A stretch of DNA of 14,317 nt from a virus (taxonomy: Duplodnaviria; Heunggongvirae; Uroviricota; Caudoviricetes): positions 1 through 14,317 of IMG/VR virus record IMGVR_UViG_2648501130_000001, one strand, 5' to 3'. The position numbers and the translations under genes were made by a program. The first letter of the stretch is position 1, and each line of letters opens with the position of its first letter. The notes beneath the pieces are model-generated. The model saw only the letters and a program-made list of their open reading frames with translations, was not told where the DNA came from and made no database searches. Below, in pieces: positions 5,140-14,317 of this stretch.

Positions 5140-5664
5140 TTATTGTTTAACCCATAATAATTCATTGACATTGAATCCCAACTTTTGAGCGGTTCGCACA
5201 TAGTCTGCTTTTACTTTATCTGGAATAGTTGGGGTCCTTGCCAGAATCCATAGGTATTCTCTGTTCGGACCACTGACAAGAGCATACTTATACTCATCAT
5301 CCAGTTTGATTACATTATAGCCACCATAGAAGGGGCCAAAAAACGAAACCTTCAATGCTGCAGTTTTAGTATCTCCAGTAAAGTATGCTTTACCTTCGCT
5401 CTCGCTCCATTTATTTTTCGTTGGATCGTATCCACGGTTAAGTACACGAATCCCTCCGTCGTTCCGTTTTCCATAAGTAGCGCTGACCTGTTCCAGACCA
5501 CGTTCGAACCGGTTCTCGAGGCGAGCTATTTCATACCATTTTCCGAGGTAGCGGTTGGCGTCAAAATTTGTAATCGGCTGCACACCTTTAGGTGGTGTCG
5601 GGGCCTTACATGCTATAAGAGTGAAAGAGAGTGCAATGCCAGTCAACACAGGCCATAACTTCAT
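5140..5664 (-). CDS. blc: Outer-membrane lipocalin (Blc family) lipoprotein
   Basis: 174-aa ORF with signal peptide and lipobox (TLIA-C at Cys19) and the lipocalin motif NFDANRYLGKWYEIARLENRFERGLE. Aligns along its length with remembered E. coli Blc but is clearly divergent, i.e. a paralogue rather than the chromosomal blc. Confidence 0.85.
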   Translation of the reverse strand: MKLWPVLTGIALSFTLIACKAPTPPKGVQPITNFDANRYLGKWYEIARLENRFERGLEQVSATYGKRNDGGIRVLNRGYDPTKNKWSESEGKAYFTGDTKTAALKVSFFGPFYGGYNVIKLDDEYKYALVSGPNREYLWILARTPTIPDKVKADYVRTAQKLGFNVNELLWVKQ

Positions 5665-5856
5665 AATAAATCCTGTACTTTTGATAGTTGAGAGTAAGTA
5701 TGAAAGATAGATGATTACGACCGATCACTTAAAGAACTTTCATACTATATTAGGAATAGTCCATAACAGAAAAATTGTCAGTGATGACGCCAGAAAGGCA
5801 ATTTATTCCGTGCACTACACAGTTTATGTGTTAATGAATTAGTCAAGGGGGAGAAT

Positions 5857-6816
5857 ATGATAAAAAAACCTGTGATTGGAATCAGCGGTTGTTTGGCCGG
5901 TTCTGCTGTTCGTTTTGATGGTGGTCACAAAAGAGCTGACTTTTTAATGGACAAATTAGTGGAATGGGTAACATTCAGACCAGTATGTCCGGAAATGGCT
6001 ATAGGGCTGCCAGTTCCGCGTCCTGCTCTACGTCTTGTGCGCTCGATGCAAGGAAATATACGGATGTGTTTCAGCCACGACCAGAATGAGGATGTGACAG
6101 AGAGAATGACAGAGTTTAGTCGTTCTTATATGGACAAATTAAAGGATGTATCGGGGTTTGTGGTTTGTGCTAAATCTCCCAGCTGTGGCATGGAGCGCGT
6201 GCGTGTCTATGATGAAAATGGTAATCGAGGTCGTAAAGATGGAGTGGGACTATTTACGAGCACTTTGATGGAAAAGTTTTCCTGGCTACCGGTTGAAGAG
6301 GATGGGCGATTACATGATCCAGTGCTTCGTGAGAATTTTGTTGAAAGAGTTTTTGCTTTGCATGAGCTCAATCACCTTTACAAGGAGAAATTATCAAGAA
6401 GAGAGTTATTAGCTTTTCATAGTCGTTATAAGCTTCAGTTGTTGGCGCATAGTCAGGCAGGCTATAAAGATATGGGACCATTTGTGGCTGCAATACACGA
6501 GTGGGCGGACCTTGAATCATACTTTGAGGTGTATCGTGATAAGCTGATGGCGATTCTCAGAAAACCTGCATCACGTAAAAATCACACGAATGTGCTGATG
6601 CATATACAGGGGTATTTTAGTAACTACTTAAGTACACGCCAGCGTAAAGAGTTGAGCGAGGTTATACTTAACTATCGTTCTGGCACATTACCTCTTCTTG
6701 CGCCGTTGACTCTGCTGAAGCATTATCTGGGTGAGTATCCTAATGATTACTTGCTTACACAAAATTACTTCGATCCCTATCCGGACGAACTGGCTCTAAG
6801 ACTGATGGTAAATTAA
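5857..6816 (+). CDS. DUF523/DUF1722 two-domain protein (YbgA-like; TudS-type Fe-S domain plus DUF1722)
   Basis: 319-aa ORF. N-terminus (KKPVIGISGCLAGSAVRFDGGHK...RPVCPEMAIGLPVPRP...CAKSPSCGMERV) has the conserved Cys pattern I associate with DUF523/TudS; the C-terminal half resembles the DUF1722 part of E. coli YbgA. GGGGAG Shine-Dalgarno upstream. Confidence 0.8.
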   Translation: MIKKPVIGISGCLAGSAVRFDGGHKRADFLMDKLVEWVTFRPVCPEMAIGLPVPRPALRLVRSMQGNIRMCFSHDQNEDVTERMTEFSRSYMDKLKDVSGFVVCAKSPSCGMERVRVYDENGNRGRKDGVGLFTSTLMEKFSWLPVEEDGRLHDPVLRENFVERVFALHELNHLYKEKLSRRELLAFHSRYKLQLLAHSQAGYKDMGPFVAAIHEWADLESYFEVYRDKLMAILRKPASRKNHTNVLMHIQGYFSNYLSTRQRKELSEVILNYRSGTLPLLAPLTLLKHYLGEYPNDYLLTQNYFDPYPDELALRLMVN

Positions 6817-7310
6817 TTGTATGCGATATCATCCAAAAGGATGAGTTCCTGCATGCAGGATATTTACAATCGTAAAAACTACACTATGATACCCAGAGTG
6901 TCAGTTTGTATAAAAACTCTGTTTACGCTGAAGAAACAATTGAGATGCAACTTAAAGTTGGTAAACATGCCAGTCAAAATATATGATATTATGATTCCAC
7001 GCAGCTATATATAATATAACAGATTGGTTTAATAATTTGTCTTTGTGAGTTAAATACATAATTTTATACTTGTGATGTAATGAAATTTTCCTTATTGTTG
7101 AACTGGCGAATATTGATTTTCCACCTACACTTACCTGGTGTAACCCCAATGATATCAGGTGGATAATATGCCATACATATGTTCTATCATTTTGGTGTTG
7201 AATTCGTTTGATGTCCGAATTGGTAAAGAAGATATTTTGTTTAAAAAAGGAAGTGCTGTTCTCATTGATTACAATTTAAAAGATTTTTTTCATCAAATAT
7301 AGATCATGTA

Positions 7311-10454: not shown

Positions 10455-10653
10455 GAGGTTGTCCCGTATTTAGTGTCGCTGATTTGTATTGTCTGAAGTT
10501 GTTTTTACGTTAAGTTGATGCAGATCAATTAATATGATACCTGCGTCATAATTGATTATTTGACGTGGTTTGATGGCGTAGATGCACGTTGTGACATGCA
10601 GATGATAATTATTATCATTTTGCGGGTCCTTTCCGGCGATCCGACAGGTTACG

Positions 10654-10665
10654 GGGCGGCGACCT
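10654..10665. other. cos site: cosN cohesive-end sequence GGGCGGCGACCT, with cosQ-side DNA upstream and cosB up to the Nu1 start
   Basis: ccgacaggttacg|GGGCGGCGACCT|ctcgggttttcgctatttatgaaaattttccggtttaagg reproduces the lambda right end, the 12-nt cohesive end and the left end as I remember them, with a few substitutions. The cosB inverted repeat (aggaaacgacag ... ctgtcgtttcct, about 10766-10825) is also present. Confidence 0.85.
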
Positions 10666-10842
10666 CTCGGGTTTTCGCTATTTATGAAAATTTTCCGGTT
10701 TAAGGCATTTCCGTTCTTCTTCGTCGTAACTTAATGTTTTTATTTAAAACACCCCCTGAAAAGAAAGGAAACGACAGGTGCTGAAAACGGGCTTTTTGGC
10801 CTCTGTCGTTTCCTTTCTCTGTTTTTGTCCGTGGAATGAACA

Positions 10843-11403
10843 ATGGAAGTCAACAAAAAGCAGCTGGCTGACATTTTCGGCGCGAGTATCCGTACCATTC
10901 AGAACTGGCAGGAGCAGGGAATGCCCGTTCTGCGGGGTGGTGGGAAGGGTAATGAGGTGCTTTATGATTCTGCCGCCGTCATAAAATGGTATGCCGAAAG
11001 GGATGCTGAAATTGAGAACGAAAAGCTGCGCCGGGAAGTTGAAGAACTGCGGCAGGCCAGCGAGACAGATCTCCAGCCAGGGACTATTGAGTACGAACGC
11101 CATCGACTTACGCGTGCGCAGGCCGACGCACAGGAGCTGAAAAATGCCAGAGACTCCGCTGAAGTGGTGGAAACCGCATTCTGTACTTTCGTGCTGTCGC
11201 GGATCGCAGGTGAAATTGCCAGTATTCTCGACGGGATCCCCCTGTCGGTGCAGCGGCGTTTTCCGGAACTGGAAAACCGACATGTTGATTTCCTGAAACG
11301 GGATATCATCAAAGCCATGAACAAAGCAGCCGCGCTGGATGAACTGATAAAGCGCAGGCGCTCACTATCAACAAGGATGAGGTTAACTCAACAGTTGATT
11401 TAA
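10843..11403 (+). CDS. nohD: Terminase small subunit Nu1, C-terminally truncated at a deletion junction (NohD-like)
   Basis: MEVNKKQLADIFGASIRTIQNWQEQGMPVLRGGGKGNEVLYDSAAVIKWYAERD...KAMNKAAALDELI matches lambda Nu1 up to about residue 169; the final 17 residues (KRRRSLSTRMRLTQQLI) are unrelated, so lambda homology breaks near base 11349. No terminase large subunit gene follows. Confidence 0.85.
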   Translation: MEVNKKQLADIFGASIRTIQNWQEQGMPVLRGGGKGNEVLYDSAAVIKWYAERDAEIENEKLRREVEELRQASETDLQPGTIEYERHRLTRAQADAQELKNARDSAEVVETAFCTFVLSRIAGEIASILDGIPLSVQRRFPELENRHVDFLKRDIIKAMNKAAALDELIKRRRSLSTRMRLTQQLI

Positions 11404-12056
11404 CCCTTACAAAACAATCAGGGACTGGCAATCGTTTTGTTTTACAGAACTCAGGTAATGCAGAACTACCGTTTTCTGTCAGGGTGTGGGGTTCCAGTAC
11501 TCGACAAAACGTTTTTGAGGTTGGAACGTCTGCTGCGTATCTGTTTTATGCGCAAAAAACGTCAGCAGGCCAGTTGTTTGATGTAAATGGCGCTATTAAT
11601 TGCACAACGCTGAATCAGTCATCAGACCGCGACCTTAAAGACGATATTCTCGTTATCAGCGACGCGACGAAAGCAATCCGTAAAATGAACGGGTACACCT
11701 ACACGCTCAAGGAAAACGGAATGCCTTATGCTGGCGTTATTGCACAGGAAGTAATGGAGGCGATACCTGAAGCTGTGGGATCGTTTACTCATTATGGTGA
11801 AGAGTTGCAAGGTCCGACCGTTGACGGCAACGAGCTACGCGAAGAAACTCGCTATCTTAATGTTGACTACTCCGCCGTGACGGGGTTACTTGTTCAGGTC
11901 GCCCGTGAAACAGATGATCGCGTTACCGCGCTGGAAGAGGAAAATACAACGTTACGTGAAAATCTGGCAACAGCAGGCACCCGGATCACCACTCTGGAAA
12001 ATCAGGTAAGCGAACTGGTTGCACTTGTCGGGCAGTTAACAGGAAGCGAACATTGA
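11343..12056 (+). pseudogene. Tail-fibre C-terminal fragment with intramolecular-chaperone (peptidase S74-like) domain; no 5' part or start context
   Basis: Frame 0 is open from the stop at 11340-11342 to the TGA at 12054-12056. The translation contains the autoproteolytic chaperone signature as I recall it (LNQSSDRDLKDDILVISDATKAIRKMNGYTYTLKENGMPYAGVIAQEVMEAIPEAV), preceded by fibre-like sequence. The ORF-track version starts at a GTG (11484). Confidence 0.6.
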
Positions 12057-12239
12057 TATCCTTCAAGCCCTGAAGGAGGCTGTTCCTGGTACGTTCAGAC
12101 TGTTGTTGAGCTGGAAATCGCAACGGAGGAAGAAACCTTGTTGCTGGAAGTCTGGAAGAAGTATCGGGTGTTGCTGAACCGTGTTGATACATCAACTGCA
12201 CCTGATATTGAGTGGCCTACGAACCCTGTCAGGGAGTAA
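12057..12239 (+). pseudogene. Tail-fibre assembly protein (Tfa) 3' fragment, in frame directly after the tail-fibre fragment stop
   Basis: The same reading frame continues after the TGA at 12054-12056 as [60 protein letters not shown], the conserved C-terminus of lambda-type Tfa proteins. No start codon or N-terminal Tfa sequence. Confidence 0.6.
12111..12239 (+). repeat. Direct repeat copy A (about 129 nt, tfa 3' end); partner at 13160-13288
   Basis: ctggaaatcgcaacggaggaagaaaccttgttgctggaagtctggaagaagtatcgggtgttgctgaaccgtgtt... aligns colinearly with 13160-13288, roughly 85-90% identical over the first 105 nt and diverging near the 3' end. Confidence 0.8.
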
Positions 12240-12293
12240 TCATTGGGATTATGCCGCAGCACGTCTTAAGCAAGAGCGAGCTGCGGTTGGATG

Positions 12294-12962
12294 CTATTTT
12301 TTCCCTGAAGCGGAAAACATTACTACAGTACCTTGAACCTTGGTTTTAACATTCTCGAAATGCTCTGAGAGTATATGTGTTAAGCCTTCTTCGGAATCTT
12401 TTGTGTTTGAAAAGATGCCTTTCTGATTGTAAATGCGCATCAGTTTTTGACCGAAGCTATTGTGCACAACTCCATCGCCAAGAATTGTGGCTCCGTATAG
12501 AGTTCCATCGTCAGTTAAGGCCTGCGCCGCATTGCGTATTACACAGCTTTTTGTAGATATATTTCCAGGCAGGCAGTGAAGAAGGTAAAACATGGAAATG
12601 GAATCAAATTGACCATGTAACGCCGCGGGATAAGGTTCAAAAACATCATGGCTAATTTTATGTTTAATTTTTGATTCCCCAGCCCTTGTAGATGCCGCGT
12701 TCAGGCTAGCTTCGTTCAAATCCATTAAAGATATCAGACTACTCTCAGGTACGTGAGTAAGGTAAAACCCAGTTCCAACACCAATATCCAGATGGTTGTT
12801 ACCTAAATGTTCCAGAAAGTGTGGAAGAAGGTGTTCCTTTGTAGGACATCCCCATGCAAGCCGATTTGATACTCCCAAAACCCACCAGTCATAAAGCTTT
12901 AGGGTAAGTGGTGTGTAAATTTTAGCCCCATCATCTGTGTTTTTTTTCATTAATTTCACCAT
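12294..12962 (-). CDS. ybcY: Class I SAM-dependent methyltransferase (YbcY-like), apparently intact
   Basis: 222-aa minus-strand ORF with Rossmann-fold methyltransferase motif I (HLDIGVGTGFYL). Resembles the DLP12 ybcY product, which I recall as a disrupted gene in E. coli K-12; here the frame is open throughout. Alternative start at 12950 (MKKNT...). Confidence 0.75.
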   Translation of the reverse strand: MVKLMKKNTDDGAKIYTPLTLKLYDWWVLGVSNRLAWGCPTKEHLLPHFLEHLGNNHLDIGVGTGFYLTHVPESSLISLMDLNEASLNAASTRAGESKIKHKISHDVFEPYPAALHGQFDSISMFYLLHCLPGNISTKSCVIRNAAQALTDDGTLYGATILGDGVVHNSFGQKLMRIYNQKGIFSNTKDSEEGLTHILSEHFENVKTKVQGTVVMFSASGKK

Positions 12963-13105
12963 GTTATAGTTTTGTTTGTGAATTAAATCAATTATGGTGA
13001 TGAATTACAAGGGGTTAAATGCTGCCGCAGCATAGCGATATTGAAATAGCCTGGTATGCTTCGATACAGCAGGAGCCGAATGGCTGGAAGACCGTCACCA
13101 CATAG

Positions 13106-13288
13106 TTCTACATCCAGGAATTCAGTGAGCATATTGCGCCACTTCAGGATGCTGTAGATCTGGAGATCGCAACGGAGGAAGAAAACTCGTTGCTGGAAGC
13201 CTGGAAGAAGTATCGGGTGTTGCTGAACCGTGTTAATACAACAACTGCACCGGATATTGAATGGCCAACAGTACCCATTATCGAATAG
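13106..13288 (+). pseudogene. Tail-fibre assembly protein (Tfa) C-terminal remnant (tfaX-like)
   Basis: After an in-frame TAG at 13103-13105 the frame reads [60 protein letters not shown] with no Met, a typical Tfa C-terminus. A short upstream ORF (ATG at 13019, 28 aa) may be a further fragment of the same degraded gene. Confidence 0.6.
13160..13288 (+). repeat. Direct repeat copy B (tfa 3' end); partner at 12111-12239
   Basis: See copy A. Same orientation, with the methyltransferase gene between the copies on the opposite strand. Confidence 0.8.
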
Positions 13289-13297
13289 TGCATTACG

Positions 13298-13334
13298 AAC
13301 TGCAGGATATTATATGGGATAATATTCTGCAGTT
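13298..13334. repeat. 16-bp inverted repeat with 5-nt spacer between the tfa remnant and the convergent GGDEF gene
   Basis: aactgcaggatattat (13298-13313), loop atggg, ataatattctgcagtt (13319-13334): 15 Watson-Crick pairs plus one G-T. No clean T tract follows on either strand, so it is either a bidirectional terminator-like hairpin or a protein-binding palindrome. Confidence 0.7.
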
Positions 13335-13361
13335 TATTGGGGCTGTATTTTAAAAAGGTGT

Positions 13362-14234
13362 TTATTTTGAGTGAATTATCACCTTGTTTTTTCCGGTTCT
13401 TTTGGCTTGATATAACGCTTTATCGGCATTGACTAACATTTCAGATGGGCTGAGATTATTCTCTTTTGAAGTAAAGCAACCAATACTGACAGTTATTTTC
13501 TCAGGTCCATGCGATAATAATTTTTCCGAGCATTGCTCTTCAATGTTTTTTCTGATTCGCTCTGCAATTGATAGCAAGAGCTTTTGAGTATTACCTTTAA
13601 TGATAATACCGAACTCCTCACCGCCTAAGCGCCCTAATACATCCTCTTTCCTGATGGATTTTTTTATTATTCTGGTAACCATTACTATGACTTGATCACC
13701 CATATGATGCCCCCATTTGTCATTGATGCTTTTGAAACTGTCAATATCTAACATTATTACTGAGAAATCATGGTGTTTTGATATATTCTTCAATGAGTCA
13801 ATAAAGTATCTTCTATTGTATGTATTCGTTAGTGGATCATGAATTGCCATATGATTAGCATGATTTAATTTCCTGAAAACATAATACATGAGTGTTGAAA
13901 TGATATAAATCATTGATATCAATTCAAGAAATTTTGTCATATACCATGCAGGATGGGATTTATCAATAAAATACAATAAAATTAGATTATTGCATACTGA
14001 CACTATACTAATAAGTATTATACACAACCATATTTTTGAGTAATTACGTATGCTGATGCATGAGCTGATAAGTAATACAAGCCAAAATACTGATATTATT
14101 TTGGTGTACACGATATTCCACGTCGGCAAATGACGATTCAGCGAGTATTGTATAATATTAAGACTATATTTTATATTGTCACTGCTTAGATTTTTTGCTA
14201 CAAACGGAGTAATAAAAAGAATTAATATTGACAA
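13362..14234 (-). CDS. Membrane-anchored GGDEF-domain diguanylate cyclase (intact GGEEF active site and RxxD I-site)
   Basis: 290-aa minus-strand ORF with an N-terminal half of several hydrophobic helices and a C-terminal GGDEF domain (HDPLTNTYNRRYF...IMLDIDSFKSINDKWGHHMGD...IRKEDVLGRLGGEEFGIII): RKED lies five residues before GGEEF. Strongly AT-rich. The true N-terminus may lie upstream of the annotated Met. Confidence 0.85.
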   Translation of the reverse strand: MSILILFITPFVAKNLSSDNIKYSLNIIQYSLNRHLPTWNIVYTKIISVFWLVLLISSCISIRNYSKIWLCIILISIVSVCNNLILLYFIDKSHPAWYMTKFLELISMIYIISTLMYYVFRKLNHANHMAIHDPLTNTYNRRYFIDSLKNISKHHDFSVIMLDIDSFKSINDKWGHHMGDQVIVMVTRIIKKSIRKEDVLGRLGGEEFGIIIKGNTQKLLLSIAERIRKNIEEQCSEKLLSHGPEKITVSIGCFTSKENNLSPSEMLVNADKALYQAKRTGKNKVIIHSK

Positions 14235-14317
14235 AACAACAATTATTATGTTTCTTTTATCTTCTAAAACACTTTTATTTTTAACATTGGTGGAATAAAC
14301 AGCCAGAAAGATTATAG

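Follow-up and report, generated by a model that had tools for sequence, protein, structure and literature searches.

The DNA that follows the tail-fibre fragment (12094-13288) very likely represents the tfaD'-ybcY-tfaX' module of a lambdoid prophage of the DLP12-like kind, now decayed, in which a 1,049-bp unit bearing the methyltransferase gene ybcY is gained and lost by way of the 3' ends of tfa (tail fibre assembly) genes. Four observations form the basis of this explanation, namely a direct repeat, an intact gene between its two copies, alleles with and without the unit, and the location of the junctions of these alleles within the repeat. The module itself is a known one, present in the annotation of K-12 for decades, and its protein is a common RefSeq entry; the sole addition of the present analysis is the mapping of the 1,049-bp presence/absence polymorphism at two loci. 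The coordinates of the features (Table 1) refer to the whole stretch of DNA that was analysed (14,317 nt), referred to as the window.

Table 1. Features of the ybcY module and its immediate surroundings in the window
Feature	Position	Strand	Basis or remark
S74-type tail-fibre 3' fragment, intramolecular chaperone domain	11484..12056	+	PF13884, E 1.7e-13; phrog_6578, E 7e-95
Repeat copy 1, tfaD-like tfa 3' remnant	12094..12239	+	Last 48 codons and stop; core 12094-12220
Non-coding tail past the tfa stop	12240..12293		54 nt; within the duplicated unit in strain 774
ybcY-type class I SAM methyltransferase, intact	12294..12962	-	222-aa ORF; Pfam, phrog_2132, WP_000239881.1
Cassette-specific spacer upstream of the methyltransferase	12963..13111		Candidate sigma-70 promoters, minus strand
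Repeat copy 2, tfaX-type tfa 3' remnant	13112..13288	+	Core 13143-13269

The window represents a defective lambdoid prophage similar to DLP12, inserted at the attachment site of lambda beside ybhB-bioA. Over positions 11400-14317 it matches many E. coli chromosomes, among them those of WCHEC020031 and 042, with 100% identity. The annotated order runs from replication genes through ybcN-ninE-rusA-Q, lysis genes, nohD, a tail-fibre fragment and a tfa fragment to the methyltransferase gene, a second tfa fragment, a diguanylate cyclase gene and ybhB-bioA, which lies on the bio side of the attachment site. The prophage lacks every head and tail gene. The tail-fibre fragment, which is of the S74 type, is labelled as partial by PGAP and is fused at its upstream end to a remnant of nohD (Nu1-like), which runs straight into it (10843-12056); a single deletion therefore took out all of the head and tail genes. 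An analogous deletion with another junction (nohD-aaaD'-tfaD) is found in DLP12 of K-12, and homology of the window to K-12 ends at position 11349.

Several neighbouring genes were also noted. A lipocalin-family gene (5140-5664, minus strand) and a YbgA-family gene (5857-6816, plus strand) lie between Q and the lysis genes, where DLP12 of K-12 has nmpC, and look like a further cargo swap downstream of Q. A MASE4-GGDEF diguanylate cyclase gene (13362-14317, minus strand, G+C 0.26-0.38) is located at the prophage end, adjoining ybhB-bioA, and runs off the end of the window. The gene dgcX of O104:H4 and EAEC strains has been described beside lambdoid prophage DNA at attB-lambda, and the MASE4-GGDEF gene fits this description, the two being compared by position only (PMC4287979). 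Small ORFs at 13037-13132 (minus strand) and 12181-12336 (plus strand) are labelled by PGAP as "hypothetical", "DinI family partial", "nucleocapsid" or "capsid" in various genomes and look like annotation noise. A DinI remnant between ybcY and tfaX, as the label has it in some genomes, was discarded, since tblastn of a full DinI-like protein against the window returned nothing.

A repeat search of positions 10500-14317 gave a single strong direct-repeat family, consisting of the two cores listed in Table 1. Over their 127 nt the cores show 14 mismatches (89% identity) and share uninterrupted stretches of at most 34 nt; their starts are 1049 nt apart, and BLAST of one copy against the other gave E values of 1e-28 to 1e-59, far beyond chance. 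In-frame translation of each copy yields the C-terminal end of Tfa, terminated by a stop codon, and the Pfam family Caudo_TAP (PF02413, 131 profile positions) is matched at 12093-12239 (E 1.5e-19, profile positions 87-130) and at 13106-13288 (E 1.2e-24, profile positions 76-130). A sequence-only reading of this DNA had described two direct copies of a Tfa-coding segment about 1 kb apart, which these results confirm. It had also placed the methyltransferase between tail-fibre-assembly genes; tfa sequences do flank it on both sides, but both are remnants rather than genes, as is evident from the loss of every head and tail gene from the prophage. Copy 1 is fused downstream of the S74-type fragment and comprises only the final codons of tfa, while the ORF leading into copy 2 (ATG at 13020) is interrupted at 13103-13105, a TAG standing where K-12 reads CAG. 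Neither copy amounts to a complete Tfa of ~190 aa with a start codon and N-terminal part, and PGAP labels both as partial.

Alleles with and without the unit were found at two separate chromosomal sites. At attB-lambda, strain BKQ37E contains an undivided match to a synthetic deletion junction (3' end of the S74 fibre, one repeat copy and the GGDEF flank); in this strain the fibre fragment is followed by a single tfa 3' end, the GGDEF gene and then ybhB-bioA, without the methyltransferase. This cassette-free form is present at attB-lambda in nine genomes, some of them with full-length S74 fibres, and the window form in 189; many other genomes carry stf there, together with a complete tfa and the GGDEF gene. 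At the yecD site, strain 774 has the order stf-tfa-ybcY-tfaX'-dinI-yecD with a repeat of 231 nt, which includes 54 non-coding nt past the tfa stop. An undivided natural counterpart of the deletion junction derived from this strain, 94.9-98.9% identical to it, was present in over 25 of the 40 genomes ranked best, its carriers including FORC_069 (placed at the yecD-aspS site) and O104:H4 strains. Cassette-bearing alleles at yecD are longer by exactly 1,049 bp, and the single copy of FORC_069 tracks copy 1 as far as the 3' edge of the repeat, beyond which it follows the flank of copy 2. Prophage ends that otherwise match are present with and without the exact 1,049-bp unit at both sites, and the allele junctions are located inside the repeats. 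Block alignment also showed the two window copies to be mosaic. The 5' part of copy 1 resembles BKQ37E (89/98) and its 3' part tfaD of K-12 (132/136); the 5' part of copy 2 resembles tfaX of K-12 (83/91) and its 3' part, together with the downstream flank, the single tfa beside the GGDEF gene in UTME-7 (135/136) and 15.03CC (130/136). The ybcY unit thus begins and ends within the conserved core of the repeat.

The unit consists of a tfa 3' end, the 54-nt tail, ybcY and the upstream spacer of 149 nt, and a further tfa 3' end lies behind it. A circle integrating through one homologous crossover in the conserved 3' end of tfa would produce this layout, as would unequal crossover, and recombination between the two repeat copies would take the unit out again, which would account for otherwise identical prophage ends with and without it. 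Whether a given event was a gain or a loss we only infer. The conserved tfa 3' end would also act as a joint at which tail-fibre modules are swapped upstream and cargo downstream. The proposal of the sequence-only reading that recombination between the repeats would excise or duplicate the gene agrees in its first part with the presence/absence alleles and their junctions; as to duplication, no tandem copy was seen, a search for duplication or circle junctions having returned no single-piece match above the normal arrangement, although this was a weak test in which two permuted pieces were joined. A more far-reaching version, possible but doubtful, is that the ybcY unit is an integrase-free mobile cassette that hops between co-resident lambdoid prophages by repeated Campbell-type homologous recombination at the tfa 3' end, and that YbcY is a lysogenic-conversion methyltransferase acting on a host small molecule or membrane lipid. 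If this were true, a selectable phenotype would explain the presence of the gene in ~70% of E. coli genomes.

Alternatively, the tfa ends may be passive leftovers of two successive tail-fibre modules, their similarity being that of a conserved Tfa C-terminus with no part in moving the gene. In favour of this, tfa 3' ends match in 5,028/5,426 genomes at a median of three places per genome; the repeat copies also differ by 11%, each being itself mosaic, and the 5' part of tfaX lacks a counterpart in full-length tfa, homology beginning only at 13112. However, the repeat of strain 774 extends 54 nt beyond the stop codon into non-coding DNA and so reflects genuine duplication, beyond what conservation of Tfa would explain, and exact 1,049-bp alleles with their junctions in the repeat occur at two unrelated chromosomal sites. 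The non-coding extension and the two presence/absence polymorphisms largely refute this alternative, which is considered unlikely, and they also largely remove a doubt that the sequence-only reading had raised about itself, namely that the repeat might reflect general Tfa conservation.

The closest known counterpart is DLP12 of K-12 (nohD-aaaD'-tfaD-ybcY'-tfaX), which shares the order and orientation of the module, an equivalent direct repeat (157 nt, spacing 1047) and identical promoter hexamers upstream of ybcY. BLAST of window positions 12094-13265 against K-12 showed 96% DNA identity, the common segment starting exactly at the start of copy 1 and stopping at the end of copy 2. The surroundings are different: K-12 has a full-length tfaD upstream and appY-ompT downstream, whereas the window has the S74 fibre fragment and the GGDEF gene, and DLP12 is a separate prophage located elsewhere (K-12 coordinates 564,755-586,056). 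The ybcY of K-12 is annotated as a pseudogene. Relative to that of the window it has lost 2 bp at codon 5 (GA within ATGAAAAAAAA) and carries four substitutions, of which K15R and F125S alter the protein; the statement of the sequence-only reading that the K-12 counterpart is disrupted was correct. The deletion destroys precisely the codon that is probably the start of the gene, corresponding to the ATG at 12950 in the window. A run of eight A residues (12948-12938, minus strand) directly follows this probable start, and the GA was lost in K-12 exactly here; the homopolymer may be a recurrent inactivation site.

An intact ybcY is the usual state, from which K-12 departs. A segment comprising the gene and the DNA directly beside it (12240-13020) was found in 3,834 of 5,426 complete E. 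coli genomes (~70%), in up to four copies, and identity was at least 95% in all but one of 3,839 matching records. The sequence-only reading saw in the intact copy a chance to assign a function; this valuation is its weak point, an intact copy being the norm and no special opportunity. Fifteen phage records also contain the region. The functional lambdoid phages PhiR26_1, ev243 and 2G7b (Nesevirus) encode a 99.5% identical methyltransferase, its oppositely oriented gene having the tail-fibre module on one side and a truncated tfa on the other, which bears out the description of ybcY as a cargo gene between tfa sequences. The order in PhiR26_1 is J-lom-stf-tfa (194 aa)-ybcY (minus)-tfa' (101 aa)-hydrolase (minus)-ompT (minus), that of ev243 and 2G7b being similar; the truncated tfa is an open ORF of 101 aa in ev243 and PhiR26_1 and two short ORFs in 2G7b. 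These phages differ from the window prophage in having complete tail genes and, as downstream cargo, an alpha/beta hydrolase gene and ompT. Homology between ev243 and the window covers 12107-13243 only and again ends within the repeats. That the enzyme has a phage function, such as anti-restriction modification of DNA or RNA or modification of the tail fibre, with its tfa neighbourhood reflecting a role in the virion or in infection, would suit its position next to tail-fibre genes in functional phages and its membership of the phage protein family phrog_2132, but is considered highly improbable.

The methyltransferase ORF was matched by four class I methyltransferase families (Methyltransf_12/23/25/11) above their Pfam cut-offs: PF08242 (37.6 bits, cut-off 30), PF13489 (28.8, cut-off 27), PF13649 (27.7, cut-off 27) and PF08241 (24.6, cut-off 21.2). 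It also matched phrog_2132 over 218/218 profile positions (E 7.7e-157, residues 4-221 of the 221-aa query), and WP_000239881.1 is annotated at this position in a genome record 100% identical to the window over 11400-14317. The hallmarks of class I enzymes are all present, namely a glycine-rich motif I, an acidic residue following strand 2 and a seven-stranded Rossmann-like fold. An alignment of 23 homologues gave 61 family-invariant columns, all 61 of which are kept by the window protein; these include motif I (LDIGVGTG), D80, D105 and the LLHCLPG block, and an N-terminal YDWWV helix is conserved within the YbcY family and peculiar to it. The gene is hence, as the sequence-only reading had it, an intact class I methyltransferase gene on the opposite strand with no disabling substitutions in its SAM-binding motifs. 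The stated size of 222 aa is that of the ORF; the protein itself probably has 218 aa, its true start being the second ATG (12950), because every one of the 22 aligned homologues begins there, at the fifth codon of the window ORF.

An AF2 model of the protein (pLDDT 90.4) had as its best Foldseek matches a phosphatidylethanolamine N-methyltransferase, JHAMT, a polyketide C-methyltransferase and a phosphoethanolamine methyltransferase, the first-ranked structure being 8ys9 (TM 0.61, 15% identity). Identity of the window enzyme to PmtA-type 8ys9, JHAMT 7ec0, UbiG 4kdr and DhpI 3ou2 is only 12-21%. Sequence searches gave weak matches to JHAMT and UbiG and none beyond these, and NCBIfam scores were all far under cut-off, the PmtA equivalog model NF045882 reaching 15.7 bits versus a cut-off of 390. 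A component of a defence system was considered and rejected, as PADLOC gave mad2 alone (E 0.0033, 14 bits), which is no meaningful match. Homologues with 55-68% identity occur across Enterobacterales as stand-alone chromosomal genes with unrelated neighbours, so those of Salmonella, Enterobacter, Yersinia and Aeromonas give no clue to a substrate, and a literature search on ybcY and tfaX gave incidental mentions only. From its sequence and model, the putative enzyme is probably an active SAM-dependent methyltransferase of the small-molecule or lipid substrate class, and it probably serves the host rather than virion assembly.

Two candidate sigma-70 promoters precede the methyltransferase gene on the minus strand, TTGATT-17-TATAAC at 12991-12963 and TTAACC-16-CATAAT at 13018-12991. 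The hexamers TTGATT/TATAAC of K-12 ybcY are listed from SELEX data as a constitutive RpoD site with H-NS binding (PMC3946193). The -10 hexamer TATAAC adjoins the first ATG of the ORF, and the second ATG is therefore favoured as the start. Because consensus promoter matches in the region are no commoner than in shuffled sequence, we infer use of these promoters rather than claim it. A scan for terminators around ybcY found none. G+C across the methyltransferase gene is 0.37-0.43, compared with about 0.5 in the upstream tail-fibre and tfa DNA.

Exchangeable cargo loci, or morons, are a feature of the region downstream of lambdoid tail-fibre genes, examples being lom and bor of lambda and the effector loci of O157 prophages. 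With its G+C dip, its presence or absence at two sites and a promoter by consensus match, ybcY would be a moron poorer in G+C than its flanks, situated in the variable stretch that directly follows the tail-fibre genes, and it would be transcribed from its own promoter, opposed to the late tail genes. It resembles the loci named in its lower G+C, its putative promoter and predicted late-operon-independent transcription, and in the variation of cargo among related phages. It differs from them in being flanked by a direct duplication (127-231 nt) of the 3' end of the adjacent gene, which therefore offers a simple homologous path for gain and loss. The S74 fibre with its tfa 3' remnant precedes other cargo in other prophages. 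A prophage at prfC in E. coli A21005 has a TIR-domain anti-phage reverse transcriptase gene (5591-7195 of the extracted locus) and dinI in this place, and the slot downstream of tfa therefore carries defence genes too. In a prophage at potB it is ybcY-tfaX that follows, encoding WP_000239881.1 as in the window; H235, with a yecD-type end, has a serine acetyltransferase gene as cargo, and in another prophage nothing is annotated after the remnant.

As a discovery the module is of small value, being real but ordinary and widespread in its intact form. The defect of K-12 ybcY is a lineage-specific 2-bp lesion, probably of the start codon, and natural alleles in their thousands, or a 2-bp repair, supply the intact enzyme. 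The tfa 3' end is a mapped case of a conserved linker at which lambdoid prophages would gain and lose cargo as a precise 1,049-bp unit.
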